Source: a virus | Virus record (IMG/VR): IMGVR_UViG_3300042924_003416 | Location: 21,774 to 85,773 of that record | Strand: one strand, 5' to 3' | Length of the DNA: 64,000 nucleotides | Part shown: one piece after another, positions 15,610 to 43,973 of the stretch | Position numbering within the stretch: position 1 is the first letter of the stretch | Layout of the letters: each line of letters opens with the position of its first letter | Notes under the pieces: generated by a model | The model's input: only the letters and a program-made list of their open reading frames with translations | Databases searched by the model: none | What the model was told of the DNA's origin: nothing | Made by a program: the position numbers and the translations under genes

Positions 15610-15631
15610 ACTTTACAAGTTTATTAAACTT
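15607..15631 (+). promoter_or_regulatory. Palindromic intergenic motif, copy 2 (candidate late promoter or operator)
   Basis: TAAACTTTACAAGTTTATTAAACTT, a near-identical copy of 7016-7034 upstream of the ejection-protein genes. Confidence 0.5.
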
Positions 15632-15665
15632 AAAAAATTTTAATAGTTTTACACAAACATAAATT

Positions 15666-18865: not shown

Positions 18866-21800
18866 ATGGCAGAAGAAACAATAGGTGGTGCTGAAAATTT
18901 AGAAAGTCAACCATCTGCTTTTGATCAATTACTAGCAAAAAGTGATATGTTAAATCCAGCAAGGATTGAACAACCTATGGCTCCAAAAGTTAATTGGCAA
19001 GATAACTTTGTTAACCCAACTAATTATATAAAAGATAATACTGCAGGTGTATCTCCTAACTATCCTCCTTCAGAAGTAAAAGCTGCACAAAGAAGTGGTG
19101 CAATGGGTGGTAGTTTTGAAGCAATCCTAGATAAAGGGATGGCTAAAATTAATGGTATGTCTGACGTAGGTTCATATGCAGAACCTTATGCATATGATAC
19201 ATCTCCTAAAGGTACATTTAGAGATAGATACAAAGGATATGGTCAAGAAACATTTAATAAAATTGGATTTCATCCACTTATAGATAATGAAACTTGGTTT
19301 AATCAGAATACTACATTTGGTGATGATTTAAAAAGATGGTCAACTAATTCTCTTTGGCCAATGGTTTCTAAAGGATTTATGGATCCTATTAAATCATATC
19401 AAAGTATAATGAATGGTGATGGTCTTTTCAATGCAGATGAACAAAGTGCAAGAGACTATGAATATTATAATGCAATTGGTGCATCAACTAAAGGTGGTCT
19501 AGGTGGGTTTACTGTAAACTTACTTAACTCTGCATCTTATTCTATGGGTATCTTACTTGAAGGTGCTGTAGAAGGAGCACTAATTGGAGGAATGTTTAGT
19601 GGTGGTAATCCAACTGCTGGTGCATTAGAAGGAGGTGCTGCATTTGCAAGAAAGTTAGGTAGTTTACCTAAGTCATTAATAGATGCTACAAAAGCAACTG
19701 GTAAGTTACTTTCTAGTGTAAAAAATTATTCCAACTTAGCAAAAGCAAAAGAACTATATAAATCTGCCGGCTCAAGTTTTGGAAATTTTATAAATCCATT
19801 ACATAATACATTTGAAGCATATCATCAATTAAAAAATACTGATAACATAACAAACCTTGCAAGAAGTTCTGCTACTGCAGGAGCACTTTGGCATGATATG
19901 ATGTCTATGAACCTAGCACTTTCAGAAGGTAAACTTGAAGGTGGTTTTACAAGATATCAAGGATATGATAAATTATATAATGAATTTATGGCTGATCCTA
20001 AGAATGGGGGTAAACCTCCTTCATTAGAAGAGCAAGAGTCAATGATGAGACAGGCATCTAAAGGTGCATGGTTAAATACTACTCTTAACACAGGCCTTAT
20101 ATTTCTTAGTAATAAAATAGCATTCCCATCTATTACAAATGCAAGTTTTCTAAAAGGAGTTCCTAAGTTTGCTTTTGGTAAAGTTGTTGGTAATGTTGGA
20201 AAAGAGTATCAAATATTATTTGATCCTGGTAAAAAAGCTTTAGAAGGTGTATTTGCAAAACAAAAAATAAGTTTTGGAAATGCAATTAAATCATTAGCAA
20301 AACCAGCAACATATGGTAAAGTAGGTTTAAACTATTTTAAAGCCAATGTTGTTGAAGGTGGTCAAGAAGTTTCTCAAGATGTATTACAAGAAGCAGTTCA
20401 AGATTATTATGTTCAATCTTATAAAAATAAAGATGCAAGAAATTATAGATACGGTGCTGGTTTATTAGGTAGTGCAATCAGTAAACAATGGAACACTCAA
20501 GGTCTTGAAACATTTCTTTCTGGTTTTTTAATGGGTAGTATATTACAAGCTCCTGGAAAAATTAAGAGTTATGCAACAATGGGGTATAATGATTACTTTA
20601 AAAAAGATGCAAGTTATCAAGAATATATAAAAGGTAGAGAACAAGTTGCTGATGATGTAGTAAATGAATTAAACACCATGTACAAAAGTGGTGATTATTT
20701 TTTTGATCCAAGAATTAATAACTATGCTAATCAAGCACTAGCTGCTAATGTAGTAGATGATCCAGATAGTCATACTACAAAAGAAATAAAAGATACTGAA
20801 TTTGCTGCTTTCCAATCAGCTGTACTTGGTTCATTACAAAGAGGAACATTTGATATGTTCTTAAATCATTATAAGGGTTATAAACAAGCAACTCCAGAAG
20901 ATATTGAACAAGCATGGAATTTAAAACCAGGTGAAGGTGTAAAAGCATTAGAAAGATTTGACAAAGCAATAGAAAATGCAGAAAAAATCCGTGATAGATG
21001 GAACACTGCAAAAGACAAAATGAAATTCATGGCAAATCTTGATGACTATGAAGAAGGTAGTGATGAGTATAAGATAGCTGAAATTTATAACAAAGCATAT
21101 AATCAGTCTTTATATAATTATGTTTTCTTACATAACTCATATGATGACAATGTCAATAGATTAGGTAAGCTGTATCAAAATCTTTCTTCTTTATCTGTAA
21201 TAAAAAATTCTACTTTCTCTGACTTTGTGGGGTTAGTTGATTCTAACAGACTGTCTCAAGAAATTGAAATGCTTAAAACAGAAGTAGAAAGTTTAGAAAG
21301 TTTTGGAACAACAGAAGCACTTACTGAAGCTGCAAGAAAAAGAGGATTATCTGAATTGTATTCAAAATTTCAAGAGAAACAAGAGGAACTTGTAGATTTG
21401 TTTGTAAACAAAAGTTTCCTTGACAATATTGTTAATGAAATAAAACAAGAAGATCCAGATCTTACTGATAATCAGGCTACTATAAAAGCAATTAATAAAG
21501 TAGTTGATGATTATGATCAAGGTAAAAGTAATGAGTTCATAGAATATAAAGAAGCATTTTCTGAATTACTTTATGGAATGGCTGAGACTCCTGAAAAGAA
21601 ACTAAAACTTGAGGAGGAAATACAAAATGTTGGTGGTATTGATGTTCTATTTGATGAACTTTTAGATACACATATTCTTAAAAATGAAAATGCAAGATTA
21701 ATTCAATATGTTAATACACTTGCAAATCCAAGAGAGTTCTATGAACACTTGATGAGAAACTTTAAGTTTATGAAAGACCTCTATGATAATAGAGAGGAAA

Positions 21801-24800: not shown

Positions 24801-26338
24801 ATGCATCTTTCTCTAATAAAGAAGAAACAATAGCTAGTATTAATGGTGTTAGATATGATGTATTACGTGATGCTTCAGGAAATATAACTACTCTTAGTTA
24901 TATGATTAATGATCAAGCAATTAGTAAACTAAACAAAGAAATCAAAGATATAAATGATAAGATTACTAAGTTACGTAATAATCAAGCTGTAGAAGAAACA
25001 GATGGAACAGTAAGTCGGAATTATAAACAAGATTCAATTATAACACGTATTGCTGATTTACAAAATCAAGTAAGAACTCTTACTGGTAAAAAGACATTTC
25101 TTTCAGAAACTAATAAGAAGATGTATTTATATGGTGAGAATGCTAATGATTATATATTTGCATTAAACAGATTACCTAATAACTTTCAAAGATTAACTAA
25201 AGAAAATACAAAAGCTCAAGAAACTCAAGATCTTAAATCTATTAGTAACTTATCATTGAGTACAGCTATTGCAGATACTATTACTGAAATACTATCAGAA
25301 AACTATCCTGCAGAATTAGATATGTTATTTGATGGTACTTTTGATTACAAGTTTAAAGCTAAACCAAAAATCAACAAGTGGATAGATACATCTATTGAAA
25401 AATTATATGCACTAGGTTATACTGTTATAAACAGAGGTGATCTAGTTGATGATATACAAAATCAAATTAATGCTTTGTTAGAATTAAAAAATGATCTAAC
25501 ATTAATTAAATTAACAAGAGAACGTAAAATTAAAAATTATGCAGAAGTCAGAAAAATCTTTACAGAAGGACAACGAGTACAGGAAGGGACTAGTGTACCT
25601 AAGAATGAAAGGACTACCAGAGGAAAAACAGAAGGAGTTCCTAGACAAGCTACAAGAGAGGAACTTAAAGACCTTGTCAAACAAGCAAGAGAAGAAATCT
25701 TAACTGATGTTTTTGATGAACCAGTAGTATTTGAAGAAGTAGGTACTCTTAGTGAAGCTATGTTAAACGATATAGGTACTATAGAAAATATAGCTAAATT
25801 AAATACTATAGAATTAATCTATCAAAAAGCATTTTTAGAGGCACAAGAAAGAGGAGAGGATGCAACTGAACTTACTAAATCATATAAGAAAAGATTGCAA
25901 GAATTAAAAACAATTAATGCTGTTTCAAATGTAGAAATTGGAGAGTATCTTATCAGTAAAAATCCTATCTTTACAGATATTTCTGGAGAAATAGTACAAG
26001 TAGTAGATATTTTTGATATATATGAAGAAGAAGTTGCTTATCCTCCAGGAACTCAAAGTACTGTTACTTTAAAGAATATTAAAACCGGAGAAGTTAAAGA
26101 ATTTACAGACGCATTCTTTGCAGAAAATTTTGAAAAAACAACTATGGAAGCAACACAACCAGAACCAGAAGTAGAATTAACACCAGTAGATATAGAAGAT
26201 TCTAAAGAGTCAAAAGATACTATTGATGATTTAATTAAAAATGGACAAGATGCTATTGCTGAAGCTAAAGAAAAAGCAAAAACATCAGATAGTCAATCAA
26301 GATGGAATAAATTAGGAAACAACTCAAAATTTTGTTAA
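18866..26338 (+). CDS. Giant ejection protein (2490 aa) with Gly-rich hydrophobic N-terminal region and PD-(D/E)xK nuclease domain
   Basis: GVTGEVDLLLVREDGSVAIVDIKT...RAQQSIY at about 23957-24140; Gly/Ala-rich hydrophobic segments; long acidic helical regions; immediately upstream of the vRNAP. Confidence 0.7.
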   Translation: MAEETIGGAENLESQPSAFDQLLAKSDMLNPARIEQPMAPKVNWQDNFVNPTNYIKDNTAGVSPNYPPSEVKAAQRSGAMGGSFEAILDKGMAKINGMSDVGSYAEPYAYDTSPKGTFRDRYKGYGQETFNKIGFHPLIDNETWFNQNTTFGDDLKRWSTNSLWPMVSKGFMDPIKSYQSIMNGDGLFNADEQSARDYEYYNAIGASTKGGLGGFTVNLLNSASYSMGILLEGAVEGALIGGMFSGGNPTAGALEGGAAFARKLGSLPKSLIDATKATGKLLSSVKNYSNLAKAKELYKSAGSSFGNFINPLHNTFEAYHQLKNTDNITNLARSSATAGALWHDMMSMNLALSEGKLEGGFTRYQGYDKLYNEFMADPKNGGKPPSLEEQESMMRQASKGAWLNTTLNTGLIFLSNKIAFPSITNASFLKGVPKFAFGKVVGNVGKEYQILFDPGKKALEGVFAKQKISFGNAIKSLAKPATYGKVGLNYFKANVVEGGQEVSQDVLQEAVQDYYVQSYKNKDARNYRYGAGLLGSAISKQWNTQGLETFLSGFLMGSILQAPGKIKSYATMGYNDYFKKDASYQEYIKGREQVADDVVNELNTMYKSGDYFFDPRINNYANQALAANVVDDPDSHTTKEIKDTEFAAFQSAVLGSLQRGTFDMFLNHYKGYKQATPEDIEQAWNLKPGEGVKALERFDKAIENAEKIRDRWNTAKDKMKFMANLDDYEEGSDEYKIAEIYNKAYNQSLYNYVFLHNSYDDNVNRLGKLYQNLSSLSVIKNSTFSDFVGLVDSNRLSQEIEMLKTEVESLESFGTTEALTEAARKRGLSELYSKFQEKQEELVDLFVNKSFLDNIVNEIKQEDPDLTDNQATIKAINKVVDDYDQGKSNEFIEYKEAFSELLYGMAETPEKKLKLEEEIQNVGGIDVLFDELLDTHILKNENARLIQYVNTLANPREFYEHLMRNFKFMKDLYDNREETIKEIVNGEIEAIENNTLLNTLADQGIYIDLEEFAKWVENKRYLPEEFFDVKNKRVITKGSVLYQDILDIFFRAAQLAEKKPAGDPLTQKQLLDKKIEDLENDRGIALQKEFDKYVEAFKKRYGFTPEEYEAQEEARVAEEEISEEDRKEAESLKKFLENAAEKLQSDNYIEVQAAAEAVVERIFDKEGERAPEEFFQEQVEIYENDPEKNAVIRELIKKFDSEDIADNVDAALKSQIYGEAVATALNLINETLSKTPAAPTIDVENTKEYLAYQEAIQAINDKFDALISEVKETFRQKGVDENTPDEYTTKTDFEDFDLPYQEEITNLFDQYLVDILGESIDIKTKDPLEYERLRTNWLEQQTPLIAKFNQQAKEIALEKARKLAEPPQLKFIPDLKINAQTTTYTIASLINRFKKFLENGEYTDPKSKKLIQLTPEDIQNINDDIESLNGYLNARVAVAAPRNIAEQTIDIIQEYVINKQSELVDLLDEDGNVIGRTFKDRGPGDPVPDRTTQVAEEIENSLKDKDSFEYSPIKPQVDEEGNVSLSPVERLYNQFFKDPEIVPEDRIRLFMDAFKREAFRGWKEFRYPEKLEAVENSLKTVGTYDDLRKTISKYAFKESADAGDYVDGLIRIFLTPNAATASNFSEFTHDSTVQIKGRDIKVSDIMSRKAFDKLFSPVTPTSPGGIITKFRLGIVDGTYMILSENVKLFDKSLRNGKGVTGEVDLLLVREDGSVAIVDIKTKSLKERKGKLVSGWKDFGNPDAKYESSTYFRAQQSIYGYQFYNNTAITPDLKLMPFDMLLSKEKIGYIEDIDLAEILEDGKDTIDLEYLPEIENFGIQKITPEIKAPIKREEVEAKVEEGLPESDPTMNTLKDNLNKAVIYNGRSGKLVRMPDGGFGVEVITNDDITTLQLTLDTLQANLDIEKQYGSEESIAELERDIKRISDAIESNKGITEIFPLQENLNKVTNGDVSFDKVGLQLVIPIDKVGQLSTVKGQVINASFSNKEETIASINGVRYDVLRDASGNITTLSYMINDQAISKLNKEIKDINDKITKLRNNQAVEETDGTVSRNYKQDSIITRIADLQNQVRTLTGKKTFLSETNKKMYLYGENANDYIFALNRLPNNFQRLTKENTKAQETQDLKSISNLSLSTAIADTITEILSENYPAELDMLFDGTFDYKFKAKPKINKWIDTSIEKLYALGYTVINRGDLVDDIQNQINALLELKNDLTLIKLTRERKIKNYAEVRKIFTEGQRVQEGTSVPKNERTTRGKTEGVPRQATREELKDLVKQAREEILTDVFDEPVVFEEVGTLSEAMLNDIGTIENIAKLNTIELIYQKAFLEAQERGEDATELTKSYKKRLQELKTINAVSNVEIGEYLISKNPIFTDISGEIVQVVDIFDIYEEEVAYPPGTQSTVTLKNIKTGEVKEFTDAFFAENFEKTTMEATQPEPEVELTPVDIEDSKESKDTIDDLIKNGQDAIAEAKEKAKTSDSQSRWNKLGNNSKFC

Positions 26339-26339
26339 A

Positions 26340-29300
26340 ATGGCATGTAAACTAGATAAAGATCAAGTATTAGATCTTTATGAAGCACTTTATGGAGAAG
26401 TAGCAGATAGATTAAAAGACTCATCGTTACCTCCTGTTGATTTAAATCAATTAGTACAATCAGCATATGCTGTTGTAAAACTTAATTCTGAAGATCAAGT
26501 AAAGGCTATGTTATATGCACAGGCTGTTCCTGATGTATTTCATTTAGTAACACAAGACACAGAAGTAAATGATTATTTAGTTGATAATAATTTTGACTTT
26601 ACTGGTCTTGCAAAAATGAGAAAACAGTTTGCTGATCTTGCTGAAGTTGGTAAAACTGTTGCAACTAAAAAAAAGAGCAAGGACGAAATTGATTCTGAAA
26701 TAAAAGATACAAATAAAACTAAAAAAGATTTTGTACCTAAGATTGATATTGATAACGAAACACTTTGGTCATATAATGAATACAATGGTGCTAAAGTTAC
26801 TAGTGCATGGACTACATCTATTCAAATTGCCTACTCTGAAAATCCTGAAGAAGTATCTGAAGAAGACAGGAATAAAATTGATCCAGAAAAAATACTTTTT
26901 AGTGATGTAATAAAAGCTATATCTCAAATATCTAAAGATAGAGTTGGTACTGAAGATATACAATATCAAGGTAAAACAATTGCACTTACTGCTCAGTTAA
27001 CTAGAAGTGTTCCAAAAGAACTTCTTGTACAAAATGATAGAGATCATTTAGAAAAATATCCAAATACTAATGGTGTAATTGCAATTCTTACTGATGAGAA
27101 AGGTAACAATTTATACTTTAAACCAGATGGTTCTTTGACTGATAACCCATCTGAGGGTAGGATAGTGTATCAATATTTACGTAGAGTAAATCTTGTAGAT
27201 GGTAAATTACTGCTTTCTAATAGAAGTAACAGATTATATAATTTAGTTGATCCAGTTAAAATAGCTGAAAGACAAAGAGATCAAATAGTTGAAGCTAAAG
27301 GAGAAGTTACTGAAACACAGTTTAAACAACTTGTAAAAGATATTGCTGCCCGTCAAGAAAAAGAACTAAATGATTTATATCAACTTAGAACATTACTAGA
27401 ATCATCGGAACAAAATCTACAATTAACTCTTCCTATTACAGGAGGAACATTTGGTATTCCAACAACATCAGTTAAAACTGTAACTTTAGAAGAGGCTGGA
27501 GTAACTGAAACTGATTTAAAAAGTTATACTCCAATTACTACTGGTGAAAAAAAGGGTCTACAATACATTATTGTAAACAAACAAAAAGCCGGTGGTCTTA
27601 CAGTTAGTCAACAGTTATTTTTACAACGATCAGATATAGATCCTGAATTAGCAGATAAAATTGCTACTATCTTAACTACCACAGTTGAGTTAAAAGGTAG
27701 ACAACTTTCTCCAGATGAAAGAAAATCATACTTTGAAATCTTTATTAATAATGCTCGTGCAAAAAAATCTAATACAAACCGTGATAGAATTCAAGCTAAA
27801 GTATTGACAATTAATAATCAAAAGACATTAGTTGTAGAAATAAATGGTAAAAAAATTGATGATGCTATTCTTTATACTGAAGAAGGTAAACAAATGATTT
27901 TAAATCATTTACTTGCAGCTAGACCTAAGAAAGTTAGTAAAGGTAAAGAAGAAGGTTCTAATGGATATTGGCCAGCAAATGTTCAATACAATAATAAATA
28001 TAGAAACACTACATTCACTGATTATACAATTGAGGATGGTAAGATTATTAGTACAAGTAGAAAATACTTTGATGTAATTAAACCTTATGTAAAGATTACA
28101 TATACAGATGAGGTATTAGCACAAGAAAAAGGTATTAATGCATATCTTAATTATGTTATCCCAGAAGGAACAATTGAGTATGAAGGATATATACCTGTAG
28201 GAAGACCTAAACCAAAAGCTGAACCTGAAAAGAAAACTAAAAAGGATAAAGAAGAAACTAAAAAAGCTCCTAAAAAACAAGCAAGAACTAAACCTGTAAC
28301 TACTGGTGCATCAAAAGAAGTGTCTGCATATGAGATTTCTATGAAGAAACAAATTAAAGATGCAGGTGGAAAAGTTGAAGGTTATAAAACTAGAATGAAG
28401 GTTGCTGATTTAGCTGAAGCAGTTGGGTTAACTGAAAAACAAATAACTGAGTTTAGGTCTATTGCATTAGAAGCTACTGCTGATACTAAGACTACAGTAA
28501 AACCAGAACCATTAACAGCACCAGAAGTTAAAGAAGTTAATATACAAAGTAATCCTTCTACTAGAATAACATTAGTAGATGATATTATTAATGGTTCTTC
28601 TAACTCGGCTTTTTATAAAAGAGATAAACTTAACAGAGATAAACTCCGTAATAAGTTTCTTGATAAAGTATTTACTTCAAAATCAGATAGAGCTGCAGCA
28701 GAAAAATGGTGGAATAATTCTCCATTAAGTAAGTTCATTTCTCTTGAAAGAATTACTGAAGTAGTGAACTCTGATGCATTTGCAACATGGTCAGGTTATG
28801 GTATTACATTATATGAAGCTGATGGTGGGACATCTGTAGATTTATACCATGAAGCATGGCATGGATTCTCTCAACTATTACTTACTAAAGATGAGAAAGT
28901 AAAACTTTATGAAGAAATACAAAGTCTTCCTAAATATAAAGGAAAAAGTTTCTTTGATATAGAAGAAGATTTAGCTGAAGAGTTTAGAGGGTATGCAAAA
29001 TCTAAAGGTAAAAAAGCAACTCGTGGTTTCTTAGGTAAAATCTTTGATAAGATTTATCAGTTTATACAAAAGCTTTTTGGAAAAACTACTAAGAAAGAAG
29101 TAGCAACAAAACTTCAAGATATTGAATCTGTCAAAGAATTATTTGACAAACTATACAGAGCCTCTGAAAATCCAGAGATTCTATCTAATCTAAAACCTTC
29201 TATGGATAATGTAATGTTTGGGAAACTAAATAGAAGCAAAGTCATCAATGATAATTTTACATTAGAAGAGTCTAAAGAAATTGCAGATGCTATAGATAGT

Positions 29301-35300: not shown

Positions 35301-36494
35301 TCATTTTCTGTAAGATTGTCTAAGTTGATACAAAACTATCCTGAACTAGCTAAAAATTATCCTATTATAGGTAAATTAAAACTTGATTCAACTAAAGAGA
35401 ATGATGCATTTAATATATTACTTGCTGATAAAGACTTTGATAATGATAAATCAAATCTTTATACACAAGATTTAAAAAAACTTTCTGATAGAACAGTTGT
35501 AAAATTAACTGACCCAGAAGAAAATGCTAGACTAAGTGACATGTTTAAATACTTAAACACTTTTGCTTTTTTACAAACCGGATTAAACAAGACTAAGTTA
35601 AGCTTTACTAATGTAGTGGACTATACAGACTTTTTATCTATTGTAGAAGGTGAGTCTAGTAAGTTTATTGAAGCTTTAAATAAAAAAGGATTTACACTTT
35701 TAGATAATTTCTATGATCAATTCATAAGAGAGAATAATAAAAAAATTAGTCCAAATAGAGATCGATTTAAAGATTATTTATCTACTATTGATTATGAAAA
35801 TGTAGAAAGAATACTTCCTGTAGAAAATCCTACTATAAAGAAAGATAGAAATGCTGAATCAGATGTAGAAGAAGTTATTTTAGATTCTACTAATCAAGAT
35901 ACAATAGCTGAAGTAAAAAGATTTAATCTTAAGAATACAGATGATCCTAATGTTTATACTTACAATGATAAGAATGCTACAAATGCAACTTACTATTTAA
36001 ATCTTGGTAAAAATAATCCTGATGTTGTCTTTGTACATAACATAAGTATTTATGAAATTAAACCGGAACAAATTGCTGCAGGTAGAAATCTTGGAGGTTC
36101 TGCTTACTTTATGACAGAAGTAGGAGATATGTCAGTTAATTTCCCAACTGATTTATTTGCAAGTGTTGTTAATGGTAGAAAGATAGACATTGCATCAGAT
36201 CAATATCAAACACTTAAAAATATTTGGGAGAAAAGAATTAATATACTTAAACAAATTCAAGAAAAAGGTGGTAAACTTGCATTTCCTGAGTATGGTTTTG
36301 GTGATCCTAACACCATGCCTCAAGAATTATTCGTATATTTAAGTAAGAGATTGTTTGAAGAGTTTGGATATATCAATCCTGGTTCTACAAAATATAACCA
36401 GGTAAGAGAAATGATAATAAAAACTCAAGGAATCTCTGATGAAGAAATAGAAATGCAATTAGAATTAGAAGAAGACCCTTTTAAATGTTCATAA
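26340..36494 (+). CDS. Virion-packaged DNA-dependent RNA polymerase polyprotein (phi14:2 gp66/crAss-like), with zincin domain
   Basis: Catalytic GGDFDIDKL (D codon at 33369), upstream RIPVQG (33252) and ADGQG (about 32004); zincin HEAWH (28848) followed by EEDLAEEF; 3384 aa. Confidence 0.9.
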   Translation: MACKLDKDQVLDLYEALYGEVADRLKDSSLPPVDLNQLVQSAYAVVKLNSEDQVKAMLYAQAVPDVFHLVTQDTEVNDYLVDNNFDFTGLAKMRKQFADLAEVGKTVATKKKSKDEIDSEIKDTNKTKKDFVPKIDIDNETLWSYNEYNGAKVTSAWTTSIQIAYSENPEEVSEEDRNKIDPEKILFSDVIKAISQISKDRVGTEDIQYQGKTIALTAQLTRSVPKELLVQNDRDHLEKYPNTNGVIAILTDEKGNNLYFKPDGSLTDNPSEGRIVYQYLRRVNLVDGKLLLSNRSNRLYNLVDPVKIAERQRDQIVEAKGEVTETQFKQLVKDIAARQEKELNDLYQLRTLLESSEQNLQLTLPITGGTFGIPTTSVKTVTLEEAGVTETDLKSYTPITTGEKKGLQYIIVNKQKAGGLTVSQQLFLQRSDIDPELADKIATILTTTVELKGRQLSPDERKSYFEIFINNARAKKSNTNRDRIQAKVLTINNQKTLVVEINGKKIDDAILYTEEGKQMILNHLLAARPKKVSKGKEEGSNGYWPANVQYNNKYRNTTFTDYTIEDGKIISTSRKYFDVIKPYVKITYTDEVLAQEKGINAYLNYVIPEGTIEYEGYIPVGRPKPKAEPEKKTKKDKEETKKAPKKQARTKPVTTGASKEVSAYEISMKKQIKDAGGKVEGYKTRMKVADLAEAVGLTEKQITEFRSIALEATADTKTTVKPEPLTAPEVKEVNIQSNPSTRITLVDDIINGSSNSAFYKRDKLNRDKLRNKFLDKVFTSKSDRAAAEKWWNNSPLSKFISLERITEVVNSDAFATWSGYGITLYEADGGTSVDLYHEAWHGFSQLLLTKDEKVKLYEEIQSLPKYKGKSFFDIEEDLAEEFRGYAKSKGKKATRGFLGKIFDKIYQFIQKLFGKTTKKEVATKLQDIESVKELFDKLYRASENPEILSNLKPSMDNVMFGKLNRSKVINDNFTLEESKEIADAIDSMMAVIFQNYNRDFNTTSAALKLLKDPENKKDLYKDIYDRFERLRIKYAEEAEKNIDLIIDPQFSKEFELLIKITDNFGNLTDSLSGKEKNNVIAYHLEKSRYKVLADEYDEIEDPSNIEKSYLFRLNEGGNTVSSKELASQETMMLLASIFDVTRENGEIIYNRDGLFGLPKLQDITITWNRLAKILEGSFDEIDMYVRIFENSENYPELQQLQTLLPNPFFTIESAMGMYNPLEFEAETNFWQDFKKPRVPFIQLNLNKEEIKSKDVLVRAFEARVAKANFDVYQVIQDWKNNFTTADSTVNPYVSKHSKLGYNILNTGKIVKDFGVNGVFNYKKADEFLRAIGIVLDPSSAAIRSIINSTSEPFGTTFGVDRMYEVIKKVNKSTSPDAFQFKRDPLTYFINGLPTSLRDNEEESEEVRGRIRALAEIQNAFSDSYSNFSVQTPEGNRVWEHMVDNTITRIVTAINHAESWEELTTDEGDPARRFQHMRWLNEKNNTFSPFSKLLNSIFDLDPMSDTYGQKITDTKILLQHVAGTQMVSKRNEGGTSTAAMDATSKFLQEFHTMLLSGVEEFMRHASKNTSMGMTLDGEVKTYNGKKASKLYIDVESFLEYADGEIKGYDIVEGYIAAEANRIVRFQQGIDKFKNYAGYNRKVKRKDNKKTPVMAGQAFTAFDDILSQDLQADLYSILDAASENPLTDFDLMKELDNNPEIRNRIRKDVAQYFNLETNKNLARLQKAKYVDNGLMERIRVTNEDLTDKDIERALMKAYTYNSFIHKMETVILAYGDLAQYNHAKEEFHKRNAGLGSGGRGFRADKRAQIYLSSLKNYYADRQGYETRNYDGTLVTAIMKEMTFNSVMYNEYRDAIEEATYERTKDRKKAKQIADTAASEYFGSNKPQMKIADGQGFITMEYYRILKKAEGNWSDQQELLYRKISMGENITAENVVEFFPPYKLQYFGNIQSEGLPVNSFHKFSLAPLIPGVWKSGTPIYDLHEKMMKDQVDYVLFESGSKVSHIGNGDNMLNEDGSLNKKAEFTKNIVYAEFLKNQTEINSTYKQKSIFSTQLRKLILEGLYAQGSIKSTKYKDITNTRVKKYIDHVEEYTELLKLELLEEMGYEETSPGEYKAKDKSSTAKLINIIRTNLEREDLLSDNLIEFIDVYDNSGDLVHDLSFHPEAAKIEKLLLSMINKRIIKQKVAGEPLVQVSVGLTANQFSKPDLKKATKDEIKKWASTTYTLPTYHRKSNGYTAAAKVMIAMQGTYYNLFNLEYDNDETVGVYDESGVLNMDESLARLNEKIKDDKWLDANNEANRKAITLVGVRIPVQGLNSMEFAEVFEFLPPQAGNIIVPPAEIVAKSGGDFDIDKLTIFMNTLDEDGKVIERQYKDNNDIKKLRGTDEFENAVKAQKAGLENELIQDIKNILELPENYASLIMPNGTFILKEIAEKLSADVMEYNPKENRMTDDTGEISPTRVLESLYNVYKHESNIVGKKTLGLGAIENTFNVIMNTIGAYMPDTYVIKEVTRKSNMRLRHNKMERRGKEVISMSDLYDVDGTNKISDVISQMINGWVDVEKDAWIFFIQGNYEVAPTLLYLIKAGVPVKEAIYFVSNPLVREYVDEQRLAKSTFADVLNKKPDGPGLAKYKAASEVIKKYFTKDELAGNSKNDDRYLKGQELLEDYFKDKKQKHFTEENMLNLIQTDDRKSNMAKAMFLHYLELEQQIAGYTALKMASNPDTATKSTLSDVEQTEANIENLFFDPRVPLEIVEAMMEDSILKSFFNGPLALAVSRPLFKLRYHKEISEYLIARKGQINNDLQTTFPGQNIEMFSNIFRNDLVSFILQNAIRKYKKQDGFMSLDMETTIPVSMAKELKRGAFVKNGTLYMDMKQIKKEFKDSAWVRNSEVENSYKDRELYELDPSTFMNHYGANFDEYLKFVAEREYIRYIKPLNTEFTNSFEFQEELDSTKELFPDLTNEKAVRYTYEKLIAIKALDNSYNFFHLFRDDDNSFSVRLSKLIQNYPELAKNYPIIGKLKLDSTKENDAFNILLADKDFDNDKSNLYTQDLKKLSDRTVVKLTDPEENARLSDMFKYLNTFAFLQTGLNKTKLSFTNVVDYTDFLSIVEGESSKFIEALNKKGFTLLDNFYDQFIRENNKKISPNRDRFKDYLSTIDYENVERILPVENPTIKKDRNAESDVEEVILDSTNQDTIAEVKRFNLKNTDDPNVYTYNDKNATNATYYLNLGKNNPDVVFVHNISIYEIKPEQIAAGRNLGGSAYFMTEVGDMSVNFPTDLFASVVNGRKIDIASDQYQTLKNIWEKRINILKQIQEKGGKLAFPEYGFGDPNTMPQELFVYLSKRLFEEFGYINPGSTKYNQVREMIIKTQGISDEEIEMQLELEEDPFKCS

Positions 36495-36495
36495 T

Positions 36496-39400
36496 ATGGT
36501 TTGCCAAGTACAATTAAATTCAATAAAGTTTTTAGAAAAAAATGGAGCTACAGATGATATAAGAAGAATTATCAATGAAGATCTGTTTAATAAATTAAAT
36601 GATAGCCTTACTGATAAGGCAGAAAGAATATATGGTCTTGAAACTAATGGTAGTAAACTTTTTAGTGTAAATACTTCTGAACATATTGATCCATATAGAT
36701 CAACCTACTGGAGAGATGCTAAGGTTAGAGTACTAAGAGCTGAACCTAATGTAAAACTTTTTGAAAGACTTCAGGAACTTTTTAATGCACGTAATGACAA
36801 ACCGATGTTTATGAAAGCTCCAGAAGTGGATTATTCATTAAAGATTGTTAATGCTTTAAATAAAATTAATAGAAATAAATTTGAATCTTCAAAATTACAA
36901 GGTTGGTTAAATGATCTTCAGAAACAAGGAGTATCTGCTCAACAATTAGAACTTTTTAAAGAAGTAGCTAAACCAGGTATGACTAAAGATGAAATAGCTG
37001 CTGCTATTGCTGCTACTTATAGTTATACTATTGAGATTAATACTGCTAAAACACCAAAAGTAGGTGAAAAATTTTTAGATAGAGAATATGGTTATGAATT
37101 AGAAGTGACAGAAGAAACTTTACAAAATCAAATTAATGATGGTTTTGTAGATAATAATTTAAATACTCAATATTATTCTAATCTAACAGTTCCCGGAGGT
37201 ACTAACTATACAGAACAAGAAATAGCTACACCAGCAATTACACCAAGTATTAAAGGACATGCTCAGTTTGCTACAGATAAAGGTATAGGTTGGTTTAGAA
37301 GTGATGAGCAATCTATTAAAGAAACTGGTCCTATTAAATATTTTGTAGAAAATGCATTTGAAGATATACAATCTGAGTTATTTACTAATATAGAAGAAGC
37401 TAAAAAATTACAAAAAAAATGGTCACAAGATTATCCTGAATTAAAATTTGAAATAGTAAAATCTTCAACATATATTTCTATATTATCAAAAACCCGTAGA
37501 GTACTAGAAGTACAATCTGATTTGTTTCAGAAAGGTAGAGATAGAGAAAATTTAATAGAAGATAAAAACATGTCTTCTAACATAACAGATTCTAATAAAG
37601 AAGAATTTGAAGTTGCAAAAAGATTAGGAATTGAAGAAGAAGATGAAGAAGGAAATTTATCATATACTTATAAAGGTGTAAATTATTTTCAAGACATCTT
37701 TACAGATAACTATTTAAAATATGGATTACCTAGTTCTAATACAAAAGGAAACCAATTCCTACAACTACTAAACAAAGACAATAACTGGATTAATTTCTTT
37801 ACTAAGTCTATTATACAAGATAGTGCTAAGAAAGGATATGAAAAAGTATTGTTTCCTTCTGGTAATACAGCTAGTAAAGTAGAAGGACACACTACTTTAG
37901 AAGAGTTTAAAAAACAAAAAGAGGATAGAATTAGATTTTTAGATGGTGAAATTAATGACCCTGAAAATATAGAAAGAAGAATTGAAGAAGCTAAAAAAGA
38001 AAAAGAACAGGTTAAACAAGAACTTGAAAGAGTAGAGAGAGAAGGTTTTGGTGCTTTAAAACCTATCTATAACTTCTATGAAAATACTGTAACTAATATT
38101 CTTAAAAAACAAGGCTATAGTCCTAAAAAAATTACAGATGAGTATGGTAATACTTGGAATGAAATTACTATAGATCAAACAAGAGATACATCTCCTATAG
38201 CTTTTATGAGAGAAAATGTAAACCCTGCTCTTCAAGAGATCAACGGAGTTCTTTTTATGGATGTAAATCTAGATCAATTACAAGATCAAAGATCAAAAGA
38301 AATTGCTGAAGTACTTGCTCAAAGATTATCACTTAGTACTAATACACAGTTTAGAAATGTATCAGCTGAAGAGGCTGCAAATATTTTAAAGAACCGACCT
38401 GTTAAGTATAACGGAGAACCAGCATTTTACTATGCAGGAACAGTTTATGTAGTAGGAGAAAATATTAATGTGAGGACTGTACTACATGAATTCTCACATC
38501 CGGTCTTGAATGCATTAAGACAGACCAACAACATCCTATTTCAGAATCTCTATAATCAAGCACTTGCTACTGAAGAAGGTCAGGGTATCTATTACTATGT
38601 AGTAAACAACTATCCAGAACTAGAAGAAAACTCAGATCTATTCAAAGAGGAAGTACTTGCTTATGCAATGCAGTTAAAAGCACTCAACAGAATCAACAAT
38701 GACATTGAGACAGAAGGGTATCAAAACTTCATGAATAAACTTCTTGCTGCTATCAAACAACTACTTAGAAAACTATTTGGTAGTAAAATAGATGTAGCTA
38801 AGTTAGATGTAGATACTTCATTAGAGGAGATGGCAGATATGCTCTTGGATAAAGACTTTGAATTCAAGACAGATAGAATAAATGAAGAAGACCTTGCAAT
38901 GTTTTCCAGGGAAGTTGTTGAAAGGGCTCGTGAACTAAACAAGTTTTCTAATAAGGAGTCTATGCAGAAAGTTGTTAAAAGTACTTTTGAAACAACTAGA
39001 AGAGTACTCTCTGAAGCTGAAGGATTTAAAGGAGATAAAGCATCTAGAAAATTATTAAGAGAATCTTTATTTGAAAAAGGTACTAATAGATACATCCGTG
39101 AAGTCTTAAGAACATTAAGAGACAACTTAGATAGTAATATTGAAGACCAAGCTCAAAATCAACTCATACAAAATGCATTAGATACTGCTAGAGAAGAAAT
39201 GGATGTGGATTTAGAAAGAGCAACGGCACTGGTAAATTCATTGGATACAATCAATAGCATGACTAAGAACATGTTATTAGATATATCTAAACTTAGTGGA
39301 ACTAATATCAATAACAGAAGTACTATTGCACTATTGATGCTTTACAAATCTAATTCAAAAGCCTGGTTAAAAATGGTTCAAGAAATAGATGAGGCATTGA

Positions 39401-42400
39401 CATCTGAAGGTGGTTTTGTGGATACTAATAATCCTTTCTATAAAACTTTAAATGAAATAGTATTAAACATCACAAGAGTCAATACTAACATTGCAAATAT
39501 TCTTAAGAATAACAATGTTCAGTTTTATGTAGAGATTACGGGATACATGTCCAAGTATGTTCAAGATAGACTTAAGGGTAACTTAGGTATAGCACTGAAA
39601 CAAACTTTTCCAACAGAACAATTAGAACGTGAGGTAAATGACCTATATGACAAAGTAGTTCAACAAAAACTTACTGAAGATGATATAGATGCATTGGTAA
39701 AGAAAGGTGTTCCTGAAAATGTTCTAACAGGCTTTTTAAAAGAATATAAAGAACTTGTTGTTGATGAAGATAAAATCAAAGCTGCTCTTACTGGAGGAGC
39801 TCATGATGTTACTTGGTTTAATAGATGGTTGGAAAGTTATAGCTCTAGTAATGATGTTATAGTGGGACCATTAGCAATGTTTATTCAAAATGAAAAGACC
39901 CAGGTACAGAATCTTGTTTGGGAACAGTCTATGAAGTTTAGAAATAAACTTGAGAAACTTTTACCTAAAGTAGGATTTAGTAAACTTAATTCCGTTGCAA
40001 TGAGAGAGAGAATGGGATTTAAGGATAAAATATTCTACATGGATAAGAAGACAGGAAAACCTGTTGAAAAAGAAATTTGGAGTTATTTAGGTGCATTTAA
40101 AGATTATAGATATCACTATGATTTATTAGACTATAACTTAGAAGAAGCAAAGAAAACTGAAGATGTCAATAAAATTGCTCAAGCTCAGATGGAGTTTGAT
40201 GAATTCAAAAGAGACTACATGTGGCAGGAGTTTGTTCCTGAGTTCTATGAGAAAGATGATATCTTTAAACAGTCTGAGGTAGGTCAATTAGCATACTATG
40301 TAAGGAAACAAAAACTGCAGGCTTTTAATAACTTGGTTAACTCCATGGAAAATGAGCTTGAAAGATTTGAGAAGTACTCAACTATACAAGCTGCATTTAG
40401 AGAGTTCCAACAGTTATATTCTCTTACCTATGAAGATGGTACTCCTAAAATTGATGATCCGGCCAGAGGTGTTTATGATTTAAGTATTGCAAAAGTATTG
40501 CAAGAACATAGAGCAGCTACAAAAGGGTTCTACGAATGGAGACCAATTGAGGGTATGTTACAAAGTGCTTACAATGAATTTATAGATTTACTTGCAACAA
40601 AACAAATTTTTCCTGGATCCGGAGAATTTAAAAGAGAACTTGAAAAATGGAGAAGACAAAACCTTAGAATGGAGTATAACCAAGAATATTGGGACTCTAG
40701 AGTTGCTTTAACAACTGAACTAAGGGAACTTCAAGCAAAAATGAATGAAGTTGCAAATTCTAGATTTGATGTTGCTGCAGCATTTCAAACCATAAATGAC
40801 TTAATATATAGCTATCGGGATGAACAAGGTGAACCTGATAGTAATGCAATGGGTAAAACAAGACTTGAAAGAATTAAAGATGCAGAACAAGCTATTGCAG
40901 ACTTTAAGTTTCAGTATGATATATCCACAGGTCTTTCTAAAGAAGATTCTGAGGAGTTAAAAAATCTACAGTATAAAGCAAGAAAAGGTTTACTACAAGC
41001 TGGTTCTCCAGAATCTAAAAGATATTTCTATCTATTAGAACTGCAAGAAAAAGAAGGTATTAATCCTGCAGATGCAGCAAGAATTCAAGAGATATTTACT
41101 GAGTTATCACAATTAACTGAAAATCTTCCTACTGTATATTACATAGAGACATTAAACTATAATCTCTCTAAACAAAATATAAAAGAAGTTGATGAAGATG
41201 ACGTTGATAATTTTATAAATTCAGATGAGTTCCAAGACATGCTGGATGCTGATGAAGGATTTAAAGAATGGTTTAATCTTAATCATTATACAATAAATGT
41301 ATATGATGAAAAATCAAGAAGTTACATACCTAGATATAAAAGAACAAAAGCAAATACTGTTGCTATACCAAAAGATTCTTCTCAAATAAAATATACTAGA
41401 ATATTAAATAGAGAAGGTAATGAGGTTTTACTTATGGGTGCTCCTAATGCTAGACACTCTAGATATGAAGTAAAAGATCAGTATAGAACTATTCCTTTTG
41501 GAGCTGCTAAAGAAGATTATGTAGGTAAGTTTATTGATAATAAAAATCAATGGCTACCAAGGATGTATCAACCTGGACAAAAATATAGTGCTAAGGATAA
41601 CAGGTTCATGAATGAAAGATACTTTCAGATGCAAGCTAGTAATTCTGCAGAGTTTCAACTATTAGAAGCCATTAAAGAATATCATCTACAGAATCAGAAA
41701 GGTATGAGTAACTATAGTAAACTCTATCTTGATATGCCTAGATATGCTCTTAGAAAAGGGGACATTTATCAGTCATTACAAAAAGCAAATTATGGTTCTA
41801 GGTTTTCTGAAATAGGAAGTAATATTCAAGAGTGGACTAAGCAGTTAATTGGTAGATCAGTTACTGATTCTGAAAGAACTTCAGATAAGTATTCTATTTC
41901 TAATGAAAATAATTATGATCCAAATAATAACTTAGTTAATACAGATCTTGACGGTAATCAAATTACTTATGTTCCTGTATCAGGTATTTATAATCTTGAT
42001 ATAGAAAATCAAGATGCTGATATCTTCCAGGGATTATTTAAATATGCATTAAGTATTCAGACACAAGGAAAACTTTTAGAGAGTTTACCTCTTGTTAACT
42101 CTATACTAGATACATTAGAAGATCCTGACAATGCTCCAAAAGATTTAGAAAAATTTGATAAGAATATTTATAGTCTAAAAGGGGCCCTAACTTTTGCAAA
42201 GAAAAAATTCTCAACTAATAACCGTCTTGGTCAGGTTAAATCTCTTATTGAAAGAGAGTACTATGGTAAGATGGTTGAAGGTATAGAGGAAACTCATCCA
42301 CAATTTGGTAAATGGATAAATGGATTACAAGGTTTATCTGCTAGAGGTTCATTAGCTATCAATCTACCTTCTGACTTAAAAAACAAGTATGGTGCATATG

Positions 42401-43830
42401 TGCAGTTAATCATTGAAGGTAGTGGTGCTGAGTTTATAAATCTTAAAGATATTGCATTAGCAAGACCTTGGGCAGAAAAAGCTATGTTAGAATGGACTAC
42501 AAAAGGTATTTACCAAACAGGTCCAGGAGCTATATCAACTCAACTTGTTCAGATTTTTGATCCTAACTTTAAGTCTAAAGATGAGTTTGGTAGAGAGATA
42601 GAAAGATCTATGTTAAAAGATCTTGCCAATATGGAATGGTTATACATGCATAGAAAATTTGGTGAGATGCAAGTTGCAATGTCTTTATTTGGAGCTTTTA
42701 TGTATGGTCAAAAAGTAGAACAAGTTATGAGTGATGGTTCTAAAAAGACTTTAAGATATATTGAAGCTTGGGAAAAAGATGATGAAGGTATCATTAGATT
42801 AAAACCTGGTATACATCCTGGTTGGAGTAATCTTCCTGTATATCATGAATATACTAAAGGTGAAAGTCTTGAAAGTATTGCTAAGAAATACTACATTCCT
42901 TTAGAAGAACTAAAAGCTAAAAATAGAATTAAGTCTGAAGTACAACTTGAAGATGGTCAAGAACTTATTATATCTAAGTCAGAGTTATTTATGGGATTGA
43001 AAAATAGAATTCAAGGTACGTCTCGTAAATTATTTGGTACTTATGATGAAATGGGACAGCCTGAAGGTAATAAGTTACTTCTCTATAGAATGTTCTTCTT
43101 TATGAGAAAATGGTTTACTCCTATGTTGATGAATAGATTTGGATTTGATTCTAAAACTATTGGTTGGACACGAGGTGGTGAAAGATATGATTGGGCAACT
43201 ACATCTTATGGAAAAGGTTTTTATATTACAGCATTCCAAGCAATGTTGAAAACAATGAAATCTGGATTTAGAAACTATAACTATCTTACTGATCAAGAAA
43301 AAACTGCAGTAAGAAAACTTTCTGCTGAAGCATTCTTTGCAATTGGTCTTGCTCTAATTGGTCTAATGGTGTTTGGATTTGATCCAGATGATGATGACAA
43401 ATGGAAAAAACTAAGAGCTAAGTCTGGTGCAATGGGTCAAGATTCATTTAACACATATGGTTTTATGTCAAATCACATGTTACTTTTGATGATGGGTGTA
43501 CAAGCAGAAACTTCGGCTTTTGTACCACTACCTTCTATGAAAGGAGTAAATTTTGGTGCAGATGATTATGTAAAGATGCTAACACAAACAACAAGTGCAT
43601 GGTATAACACTGTAGTACTTTATATTGATATCTTTGGAGATGCATTAGATTTTGTAACATTCTCTGAAATGGATAGATATAAACGTGATACAGGTCCATA
43701 TTCATGGAAAGAAGAAGGAGATTTAAAATTATGGAGTAAATTAGGAAAAGCAATAGGGTTCACTGGTTCTACTGGAGATCCAGTAACATCATTTGAAAAT
43801 CAATTTAAAAGTCAATCTAAAGGAAATTAA
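36496..43830 (+). CDS. Giant ejection/polyvalent protein (2444 aa): EVQSD domain, zincin HExxH, LysM domain, C-terminal hydrophobic helices
   Basis: RRVLEVQSD (about 37500); HEFSH...EEVLA (38485); LysM YTKGESLESIAKKYYIPLEELKAKNRI...LEDGQELII (about 42850-42970); hydrophobic AFFAIGLALIGLMVFGF. Confidence 0.75.
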   Translation: MVCQVQLNSIKFLEKNGATDDIRRIINEDLFNKLNDSLTDKAERIYGLETNGSKLFSVNTSEHIDPYRSTYWRDAKVRVLRAEPNVKLFERLQELFNARNDKPMFMKAPEVDYSLKIVNALNKINRNKFESSKLQGWLNDLQKQGVSAQQLELFKEVAKPGMTKDEIAAAIAATYSYTIEINTAKTPKVGEKFLDREYGYELEVTEETLQNQINDGFVDNNLNTQYYSNLTVPGGTNYTEQEIATPAITPSIKGHAQFATDKGIGWFRSDEQSIKETGPIKYFVENAFEDIQSELFTNIEEAKKLQKKWSQDYPELKFEIVKSSTYISILSKTRRVLEVQSDLFQKGRDRENLIEDKNMSSNITDSNKEEFEVAKRLGIEEEDEEGNLSYTYKGVNYFQDIFTDNYLKYGLPSSNTKGNQFLQLLNKDNNWINFFTKSIIQDSAKKGYEKVLFPSGNTASKVEGHTTLEEFKKQKEDRIRFLDGEINDPENIERRIEEAKKEKEQVKQELERVEREGFGALKPIYNFYENTVTNILKKQGYSPKKITDEYGNTWNEITIDQTRDTSPIAFMRENVNPALQEINGVLFMDVNLDQLQDQRSKEIAEVLAQRLSLSTNTQFRNVSAEEAANILKNRPVKYNGEPAFYYAGTVYVVGENINVRTVLHEFSHPVLNALRQTNNILFQNLYNQALATEEGQGIYYYVVNNYPELEENSDLFKEEVLAYAMQLKALNRINNDIETEGYQNFMNKLLAAIKQLLRKLFGSKIDVAKLDVDTSLEEMADMLLDKDFEFKTDRINEEDLAMFSREVVERARELNKFSNKESMQKVVKSTFETTRRVLSEAEGFKGDKASRKLLRESLFEKGTNRYIREVLRTLRDNLDSNIEDQAQNQLIQNALDTAREEMDVDLERATALVNSLDTINSMTKNMLLDISKLSGTNINNRSTIALLMLYKSNSKAWLKMVQEIDEALTSEGGFVDTNNPFYKTLNEIVLNITRVNTNIANILKNNNVQFYVEITGYMSKYVQDRLKGNLGIALKQTFPTEQLEREVNDLYDKVVQQKLTEDDIDALVKKGVPENVLTGFLKEYKELVVDEDKIKAALTGGAHDVTWFNRWLESYSSSNDVIVGPLAMFIQNEKTQVQNLVWEQSMKFRNKLEKLLPKVGFSKLNSVAMRERMGFKDKIFYMDKKTGKPVEKEIWSYLGAFKDYRYHYDLLDYNLEEAKKTEDVNKIAQAQMEFDEFKRDYMWQEFVPEFYEKDDIFKQSEVGQLAYYVRKQKLQAFNNLVNSMENELERFEKYSTIQAAFREFQQLYSLTYEDGTPKIDDPARGVYDLSIAKVLQEHRAATKGFYEWRPIEGMLQSAYNEFIDLLATKQIFPGSGEFKRELEKWRRQNLRMEYNQEYWDSRVALTTELRELQAKMNEVANSRFDVAAAFQTINDLIYSYRDEQGEPDSNAMGKTRLERIKDAEQAIADFKFQYDISTGLSKEDSEELKNLQYKARKGLLQAGSPESKRYFYLLELQEKEGINPADAARIQEIFTELSQLTENLPTVYYIETLNYNLSKQNIKEVDEDDVDNFINSDEFQDMLDADEGFKEWFNLNHYTINVYDEKSRSYIPRYKRTKANTVAIPKDSSQIKYTRILNREGNEVLLMGAPNARHSRYEVKDQYRTIPFGAAKEDYVGKFIDNKNQWLPRMYQPGQKYSAKDNRFMNERYFQMQASNSAEFQLLEAIKEYHLQNQKGMSNYSKLYLDMPRYALRKGDIYQSLQKANYGSRFSEIGSNIQEWTKQLIGRSVTDSERTSDKYSISNENNYDPNNNLVNTDLDGNQITYVPVSGIYNLDIENQDADIFQGLFKYALSIQTQGKLLESLPLVNSILDTLEDPDNAPKDLEKFDKNIYSLKGALTFAKKKFSTNNRLGQVKSLIEREYYGKMVEGIEETHPQFGKWINGLQGLSARGSLAINLPSDLKNKYGAYVQLIIEGSGAEFINLKDIALARPWAEKAMLEWTTKGIYQTGPGAISTQLVQIFDPNFKSKDEFGREIERSMLKDLANMEWLYMHRKFGEMQVAMSLFGAFMYGQKVEQVMSDGSKKTLRYIEAWEKDDEGIIRLKPGIHPGWSNLPVYHEYTKGESLESIAKKYYIPLEELKAKNRIKSEVQLEDGQELIISKSELFMGLKNRIQGTSRKLFGTYDEMGQPEGNKLLLYRMFFFMRKWFTPMLMNRFGFDSKTIGWTRGGERYDWATTSYGKGFYITAFQAMLKTMKSGFRNYNYLTDQEKTAVRKLSAEAFFAIGLALIGLMVFGFDPDDDDKWKKLRAKSGAMGQDSFNTYGFMSNHMLLLMMGVQAETSAFVPLPSMKGVNFGADDYVKMLTQTTSAWYNTVVLYIDIFGDALDFVTFSEMDRYKRDTGPYSWKEEGDLKLWSKLGKAIGFTGSTGDPVTSFENQFKSQSKGN

Positions 43831-43832: not shown

Positions 43833-43973
43833 ATGGCAAAGACAACAACAGGGTCCGTAAAGACCTACATGAAAACTAAGAAATCCCGTCCAGGTGTACA
43901 TTCTAAAACTAAAAGTTCTAAGATGAAAAAGTCTAGGAATTATAAAAAAGCATACAGAGCACAAGGAAGGTAA
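43833..43973 (+). CDS. Small very basic protein (46 aa), absent from the ORF track
   Basis: MAKTTTGSVKTYMKTKKSRPGVHSKTKSSKMKKSRNYKKAYRAQGR; starts 2 nt after the upstream stop and ends at the terminator. Confidence 0.7.
   Translation: MAKTTTGSVKTYMKTKKSRPGVHSKTKSSKMKKSRNYKKAYRAQGR

Follow-up and report, generated by a model that had tools for sequence, protein, structure and literature searches.

The subject of this report is a set of three adjacent genes for giant proteins, probably virion cargo, of a crassvirus, whose few cysteine (Cys) residues lie only at the ends by which consecutive proteins face one another. The genes were found in IMG/VR virus record IMGVR_UViG_3300042924_003416; the window, by which we mean the whole stretch of 64,000 nucleotides (nt) that was analysed (positions 21,774 to 85,773), is the right-hand 64 kb of this 85,773-bp record and has a G+C content of about 31%. 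Judged by sequence, the three proteins, here called A, B and C, are the crassvirus virion RNA polymerase (vRNAP) module, orthologous to gp67, gp66 and gp65 of phage phi14:2. The facing Cys are conserved, they follow the module through gene fusions and gene splits, and they recur in an unrelated phage where they form a disulfide. On balance, this analogy and the sequence comparisons lead us to favor a head-to-tail disulfide-linked A-B-C chain in the virion, which would be threaded 1:1:1 in order and released by reduction.

Results

Cysteines at the facing ends of three giant proteins

The three genes and their four Cys codons, as read from the translated open reading frames (ORFs), are as follows.

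18866..26338, + strand: protein A, 2490 amino acids (aa); orthologue of crAss001 gp47 (BLASTP E 6e-8) and, by position, counterpart of phi14:2 gp67
26333..26335, + strand: TGT, A Cys2490, the C-terminal residue
26340..36494, + strand: protein B, 3384 aa; virion RNA polymerase, orthologue of phi14:2 gp66 and crAss001 gp50
26346..26348, + strand: TGT, B Cys3 (protein start MAC)
36486..36488, + strand: TGT, B Cys3383, the penultimate residue (...EEDPFKCS)
36496..43830, + strand: protein C, 2444 aa; orthologue of phi14:2 gp65 and crAss001 gp49
36502..36504, + strand: TGC, C Cys3 (protein start MVC)

Together the proteins comprise 8318 aa with four Cys in total. The sole Cys of A is its last residue (...NNSKFC), B has Cys at positions 3 and 3383 only, and the sole Cys of C is residue 3. 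A first-pass annotation of this DNA had listed the same four, and its residues and codon positions agree exactly with the translations; the count by position that it proposed as a check reveals no internal Cys in the trio. It had also remarked that the outer ends of the trio are free of Cys and that both junctions read TAA-N-ATG. Both remarks are borne out, A beginning MAEETI... and C ending ...SQSKGN.

The trio belongs to a group of eight large ORFs, all in the same orientation on the plus strand of the window, while the minus strand carries a replication module (DNA polymerase, primase, helicase, exonuclease). The remaining 19 ORFs of the window contain 72 Cys in 10,042 aa (0.72%), and the frequency in the 15 replication ORFs of the minus strand is 0.98%. 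At the replication-ORF rate, 81 Cys would be expected in 8318 aa (Poisson probability of four or fewer, 9e-30). Were four Cys to fall at random, the probability of finding them within the 12 residues nearest the four facing ends would be about 4e-12.

Conservation of the facing cysteines

Conservation was assessed among the best 120 matches for each of A, B and C, 360 proteins in all, down to about 44% identity. A Cys lies within the last six residues in 117 of the 120 A homologues and within the first six in none (0/120); a single internal Cys occurs in their 298,516 aa. Both end Cys are present in each of the 110 B homologues that reach 3000 aa or more. The other ten, all shorter, are products of truncated gene calls, and one of them nevertheless has both; the full set of 120 holds ten internal Cys in 406,229 aa. 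For C, Cys falls within the first six residues in 107 of 120 homologues and within the first eight in 109, and within the last six in one; in eleven the N-terminus differs, probably through an incorrect or truncated start. Overall, the 360 homologues contain 20 internal Cys in 972,614 aa. The comparison with orthologues that the first-pass annotation had called for finds the terminal Cys kept in these homologues. A subgroup of A homologues (P0178 and P0181-P0185; 2378-2419 aa) is shorter and has different C-termini, with Cys at position -2 in two members (IVHCY, IVDCY) and six residues from the end in one.

A profile of the B core widened the sample to 2253 representatives of 50%-identity clusters, of which the best 150 were analysed, 132 of them at least 3000 aa long. 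Within this best-scoring set, 111 of the 132 have Cys no more than six residues from both ends. In eight of nine representatives failing the six-residue criterion at the C-terminus the Cys is at -7 or -8, and in four of twelve failing it at the N-terminus the Cys is at residues 7-12, behind an upstream start. The eight without an N-terminal Cys (P0368, P0379, P0393, P0416, P0421, P0423, P0447 and P0461) look, from their sequences, to be cut about 30 residues short at the N-terminus. Internal Cys in these representatives number 57 in 476,688 aa.

Gene junctions were inspected in 63 IMG/VR loci with 10-kb flanks. Every visible A/B junction (55 of 55) has the facing pair, as do 54 of the 56 B/C junctions. 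One of the two B/C misses has a start called four codons too early (MFLMMVC). In the other, L087, an unrelated 160-aa ORF (15417-15896) is inserted between B and C, and both Cys are kept. The C gene of L083 is broken; its first 128 codons start MAC at the B stop codon. When related loci were searched for with the 500 C-terminal residues of A, no relative was found.

The sequence around the terminal Cys has diverged to 20-30% identity, but these Cys themselves are invariant or almost so. Cys is the only invariant column in an alignment of the last 300 residues of A (43 sequences), Cys3 is one of three invariant columns in the first 450 residues of B, and Cys3383 is one of three in its last 250; in the first 300 residues of C, only M1, C3 and Y46 are invariant. 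Codons next to the terminal Cys vary synonymously, and TGT and TGC are both used, which argues that selection acts at the protein level.

Fused and split versions of the module

The terminal-Cys rule is obeyed by phi14:2, crAss001 and 11 gut crAss genomes as well. In phi14:2, the sole Cys of gp67 (1797 aa) is its last residue (...NTIC), gp66 (2180 aa) has Cys at 3 and 2179, and gp65 (1421 aa) has Cys 3. In crAss001, gp47 carries its sole Cys at -3, gp49 has Cys 5, and gp50 has three Cys, at residue 5, at residue 2404 (-9) and at an internal position. The gp47 gene lies on the strand opposite gp50-gp49 and the facing Cys are nevertheless kept, so that junction nucleotides cannot produce the pattern as a by-product.

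Of greatest interest are genomes in which the division of the module into genes has changed. A and B are fused into one protein (4328-5794 aa) in eight Suoliviridae (cr50_1, cr7_1, cr60_1, cr113_1, cr118_1, cr10_1, cr4_1 and cr273_1). These fusions have no N-terminal Cys, and their C-terminal Cys lies at -50 in cr273_1 and between -1 and -11 in the other seven; the protein that follows, unannotated in cr10_1, starts MxC or MxxC. The A|B boundaries were placed by BLASTP with gp47 and gp66 and are rough, to within about 100 residues. With that precision, no conserved Cys is found in the mapped boundary region of the eight fusions: four (cr50_1, cr10_1, cr60_1 and cr273_1) have no Cys within 150 residues, a single Cys follows some 115-120 residues downstream in both cr113_1 and cr118_1, one coincides with the estimated boundary of cr4_1, and three are close to that of cr7_1. 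In the Intestiviridae cr271_1 and cr110_1, the A-like protein retains Cys at -2, and the next protein (4417-4620 aa) combines DFDxD with gp65/gp49-like sequence; its start is MSC, which in cr110_1 is found at an internal Met, and it lacks a Cys close to its C-end. By sequence comparison, the Cys that remain in every fusion arrangement are the partners predicted by junction pairing. Hidden Markov models (HMMs) of the four terminal regions, built on the marine/freshwater clade, found no match in gut crass proteins.

The converse situation is seen where C is split. At locus L086, C1 (1096 aa) carries one Cys at residue 3 and another as its last residue, and C2, which aligns with C homologues from about residue 550 on, starts MKGSC. 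Locus L079 encodes a 165-aa protein that carries Cys 4 and ends in a Cys. This protein matches the N-terminal domain of C (HMM E 4e-6; gp65 residues 2-57), and its downstream neighbor is a 1075-aa protein that starts MSDINC and matches the C-terminal part of gp65. As read from the sequences, C has been broken twice, independently and at different positions, with a new facing pair at each break.

Two other observations concern the giant genes of other crAss-like phages. The vRNAP gene of cr108_1 (L021, 21806-22097) is interrupted within DFDID: the coding sequence ending in ...AGSD is followed, after 290 nt, by one that begins with LYDIDKMY, which looks like an intron or similar insertion. Many in-frame stop codons are present in the giant genes of gut Suoliviridae (L023, L024, L088, L094, L095). 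In the two genes in which they were counted, all are TAG (148 in cr7_1 gp32 and 36 in cr273_1 gp35), a pattern that fits TAG reassignment in late genes of these phages.

Identity of the three proteins

The assignment of the trio rests on sequence similarities, along with gene position and a catalytic motif. In pairwise BLASTP searches, whose E-values refer to a tiny database, B matched crAss001 gp50 (8e-13) and phi14:2 gp66 (1.5e-8), A matched crAss001 gp47 with the value given above, and C matched phi14:2 gp65 (1e-7, over the N-terminal 85 aa with 34% identity) and crAss001 gp49 (2e-5). A tblastn search with B matched 29 of 50,697 phage records, all crAss-type by organism name, with 22-46% identity over parts of residues 700-2700. 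The motifs and domains recognized are these.

28848..28862, + strand: HEAWH (HExxH) motif, B residues 837-841; motif only
33369..33383, + strand: DFDID catalytic motif of a two-barrel vRNAP (GGDFDIDK), B residues 2344-2348
38485..38499, + strand: HEFSH (HExxH, zincin-like) motif, C residues 664-668; motif only
42856..42972, + strand: LysM peptidoglycan-binding domain, C residues 2121-2159 (PF01476, E 1.2e-5, above gathering score)

The GGDFDIDK of B corresponds to GSDFDIDK in phi14:2 gp66, whose DFDID (residues 1361-1365) is named in a preprint (10.1101/2020.03.07.982082). The identification of B as a vRNAP in the first-pass annotation was thus correct. HEFSH at residue 664 of C and HEIMH at 245 of gp65 are motifs only, and Pfam finds no protease domain in C. 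The HEAWH in the N-terminal quarter of B is the second HExxH of the trio; an HExxH is present too in the relative at L083, and the Suoliviridae fusion proteins have one about 1500 residues ahead of DFDxD. Neither A nor B has a Pfam or PHROGs match, and Pfam finds only LysM in C. When PDB sequences were searched with HMMER, neither the profile of the B core nor the complete B sequence matched a chain of the solved gp66 structure.

For the better studied relatives, the sections of the literature covered here report that the phi14:2 trio is packaged in the virion and that gp66 enters the cell with the DNA and transcribes early genes (preprint 10.1101/2020.03.07.982082), and that gp47, gp49 and gp50 of crAss001 are virion cargo for which partial unfolding is needed for exit through the tail (PMC10172136). 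The phi14:2 proteins are smaller than those of the window (1797/2180/1421 against 2490/3384/2444 aa), and the LysM domain of C is an addition relative to its phi14:2 and crAss001 counterparts. Homologues of A, B and C (P0008, P0054, P0061, P0089, P0207-P0212, P0250-P0252, P0292, P0336 and others) have variable inserts with Pfam domains: Zeta-toxin/AAA_33 kinase (PF06414/PF13671), NADAR (PF08719), 2OG-Fe(II) oxygenase (PF13532), GNAT (PF00583), PF25176, PF12694 and PF18760. From these sequences, the cargo proteins seem to be carriers of swappable enzyme modules.

Structure prediction

A model of the last 300 residues of A (mean predicted local distance difference test score, pLDDT, 74.7) ends in three long helices, which stop three residues short of the Cys. 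For the first 450 residues of B, the model (mean pLDDT 81.3) begins with a helical domain at 7-127. Foldseek found no match to this model of B in PDB at E<=0.001, and the best hit of a wide VIA-align search was an uninformative helical bundle (Z 6.8); neither an A4 chain (the phage introduced below) nor gp66 was listed by these fold searches. When the C-terminal 250 residues of B were co-folded with the N-terminal 130 of C, the scores were 0.23, 0.55 and 0.21 against a mark of 0.32, and the outcome was counted neither way.

Neighboring genes

The ORF directly upstream of A is devoid of Cys.

15666..18863, + strand: 1065-aa ORF, 0 Cys by translation

It is Cys-suppressed but, because it has no terminal Cys, it stands outside the chain. 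Farther upstream, the large virion ORFs at 7076-12127 and 12136-15609 (+) have, unlike the trio, Cys in tight clusters only: CxC...CxC at 635/637/654/656, and others at 812/814/832/834/847/849/867/870. These resemble metal-binding knuckles or local disulfide loops. On the other side, a very basic, Cys-free ORF of 46 aa (MAKTTTGSVKTY...) at 43833-43973 (+) begins 2 nt past the C stop codon.

Discussion

A proposed disulfide-linked chain and its competitors

The first-pass annotation had proposed that each C-terminal Cys bonds to the N-terminal Cys of the next protein. The pairing part of this proposal gains support from conservation, fusions and splits at the sequence level; for the bond itself, the argument is one of analogy with Anabaena phage A-4L (cyanophage A4), in which a disulfide between Cys1715 of gp27 and Cys5 of gp26 has been seen by cryo-electron microscopy (PNAS 2025, PMC12002296). 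The sequence signature in A4 is identical to that of the trio, and there it is a real disulfide in a non-homologous phage. We consider it likely that the facing ends are directly bridged, by a disulfide or a metal, and almost as likely that the bridge is a disulfide, whatever its role. Threading as one chain and reductive release are suggested less strongly than the bond.

One could envision the following course of events. The trio would be cargo packed in the capsid and delivered into the host, and Cys would have been purged from it as in the ejection proteins of N4-like phages. In the assembled, oxidized virion, the C-terminal Cys of one protein would be disulfide-bonded to Cys 3 of the next, giving a linear A-S-S-B-S-S-C concatemer of 8318 residues in which A, B and C are held 1:1:1 in fixed order. 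With links only 0-2 residues from the chain ends, the joints would be almost as thin as a single polypeptide, and A-B-C could leave through portal and tail as one partly unfolded thread, to be separated by reduction in the cytoplasm. The placement of the links at the chain ends, and their reappearance at newly split ends, would fit a joint that must stay thin. Extended to crassviruses at large, the idea that their RNA-polymerase cargo of about 1 MDa travels as one covalent thread in a set order and is cut apart by the host's reducing cytoplasm is a tentative one that we would hold doubtful for now. Were it true, the cytoplasmic cut may also switch on a self-inhibited polymerase, and gene fusion and terminal Cys pairs would be interchangeable evolutionary routes to the same chain.

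Several points weigh against the disulfide-linked thread. Virions assemble in a reducing cytoplasm and gut crassviruses live among strict anaerobes, so oxidation must follow assembly or release. The A4 bond is part of a ring-shaped pre-ejectosome that is folded, and a role in a thread is not implied by this precedent; nor are the A4 proteins similar in sequence to A, B or C (BLASTP best E 0.27; no phmmer match at E<=1). Not every broken gene has acquired a facing pair: B of L047 is broken by a 149-nt gap (10708-10858) in a conserved stretch, and A of L062 into two frames overlapping by 1 nt (2418), with no Cys at either break, although the sequences at these breaks suggest an intron, a frameshift or an error of assembly. 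The Cys is not strictly terminal everywhere (-9 in crAss001 gp50, -10 in L055 and L069, -11 in cr10_1, -50 in cr273_1). Finally, gut crass proteins have more internal Cys (13 in cr7_1 gp32 and 15 in cr271_1 64693), which makes the clean pattern a feature of the marine/freshwater clade.

The main rival accepts the same inter-protein disulfides and gives them a different role, namely to lock a folded internal core, similar to the A4 pre-ejectosome, for co-packaging and capsid stability; there would be no covalent thread, and the links would be broken or irrelevant at ejection. This we regard as unlikely. In the sole structure with the signature, the bond pins a helix at the C-terminus of gp27 in a cleft of gp26, all as part of a folded pentameric ring (PMC12002296), structure prediction gives folded terminal regions for A and B (mean pLDDT 74.7 and 81.3), and the other disulfides described for crAss001 stabilize assemblies (PMC10172136). 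However, a clamp could sit anywhere on an interface, whereas the Cys are kept at the extreme ends in many lineages and at new splits, a position that a thin, threadable joint would require; and in the account of crAss001 covered here gp47, gp49 and gp50 are without resolved ordered density (PMC10172136). A metal ion (Zn, Fe or Cu(I)) shared by each facing pair would bridge the termini non-covalently. The fusion and split evidence is equally consistent with any direct bridge, and the conserved acidic residues before the C-terminal Cys of B (EEDPFKC) could be ligands; but there are only two thiolates per junction, the terminal alignments show no conserved His or extra Cys nearby, and the identical signature in A4 is a disulfide (PMC12002296). 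We therefore rate a metal bridge as improbable.

It is true that sequence alone cannot show which thiol meets which, and other structural proteins of crAss001 are reported to make inter-subunit Cys bonds (PMC10172136). Each terminal Cys might then act independently, in homodimerization, attachment to another virion protein or acylation, with the facing layout as a by-product. That would leave unexplained why the outer ends have no Cys (0/120 A N-termini, 1/120 C C-termini), why fusions leave the predicted partners and why both new ends of a split gain a Cys, and it seems to us quite improbable. The same four Cys could also be accounted for by a Cys3-Cys3383 bond cyclizing B, with A linked to C. 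Here the comparative data are unfavorable: A+B fusions retain the Cys of the B C-end and the C N-end, and Intestiviridae those of the A C-end and the B N-end, which would in either case be two orphans, and four-member chains do not fit. This very improbable arrangement was rejected. There remains chance, or a nucleotide signal at the TAA-N-ATG junctions that incidentally encodes Cys. In its favor are the tight coupling of the genes and the closeness of the Cys codons to the junction, no more than 10 nt away. Against this stand the probabilities computed above for placement (about 4e-12) and depletion (9e-30), the variation of the Cys codons and of neighboring synonymous sites, and the persistence of the facing pair without gene adjacency, on opposite strands in crAss001 and across the inserted ORF in L087. 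Chance and junction signal are refuted by these data, and the probability we would assign to them is negligible.

Novelty and significance

Literature searches returned, within the texts they covered, no description of terminal cysteines or of disulfide-linked crassvirus cargo. The words "cysteine", "Cys" and "disulfide" are absent from the preprint (10.1101/2020.03.07.982082) by term search. In the searched text of PMC10172136 (Bayfield 2023), "cysteine" does not occur and "disulfide" occurs seven times, always for gp57 and tail proteins. Term searches of PMC13434306 and PMC11445570 gave no terminal-Cys linkage of crassvirus cargo. Already known are Cys-free ejection proteins and one head-to-tail disulfide, that of A4. 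New relative to the literature searched are the rule in Crassvirales and its extent, the proposed three- and four-member chains with a vRNAP, and the exchange between fusion and Cys pair.

How the megadalton protein cargo of podovirus-like phages passes, in order and in the right stoichiometry, through a channel narrower than its folded proteins is posed as an open question for N4 in the parts of PMC13434306 covered, and the same question about ejection is open for crassviruses, the most abundant human gut viruses (PMC10172136, likewise in part). A conserved linkage mark that can be read from sequence offers a concrete hypothesis, testable on the cultured phages phi14:2 and crAss001. It also provides an annotation rule for chain members and true start codons in crAss-like genomes, and explains why the module comes as one, two, three or four genes according to lineage.

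Comparison with known systems

The closest parallel is A4. The genome of A-4L (KF356198) encodes gp27 (1717 aa), whose sole Cys is at 1715 (-3), and gp26 (1114 aa), whose sole Cys is at 5; gp29 has none by our count. As in the trio, the genes for gp27 and gp26 are adjacent, the sole Cys lie near the facing ends, and the products are internal ejection proteins. The differences are that A4 links two proteins and has no RNA polymerase, whereas the proposed crassvirus chain has three or four members including the vRNAP, and that the A4 disulfide is presented, in the relevant sections of PMC12002296, as a stabilizing detail and not as a general rule. Disulfides between subunits are not foreign to crassvirus particles: those of crAss001 are described in the gp57 dimer and in tail hub-ring proteins (PMC10172136, in the sections covered). 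In T7, gp15 and gp16 contain no Cys, and gp14 (L097) has one at residue 2 (MCW...) with no facing pair.

The avoidance of Cys finds its counterpart in Schitoviridae, where a giant virion RNA polymerase and its companions are, as in the trio, almost free of Cys across homologues. The parts of PMC11445570 covered describe the ejection proteins of DEV (gp71-gp73) as nearly Cys-free, with 0.00075% Cys among gp71 homologues, and propose as the reason their passage through the periplasm, with its disulfide-forming enzymes. In N4 itself, we counted no Cys in gp50 (3500 aa), in keeping with the statement of the first-pass annotation that the N4 vRNAP is Cys-free, and none in gp51 or gp52. The polymerases are of different families, that of B having the DFDxD two-barrel motif and that of N4 belonging to another class, the T7-like. 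The two modules also differ in layout, the N4 module being contained in one 3500-aa chain with no Cys and that of the window in three chains with Cys at the facing ends. PMC13434306 raises as open a comparison with the three regions of the N4 vRNAP, and a disulfide-linked trio would match that single 3500-aa chain in topology.

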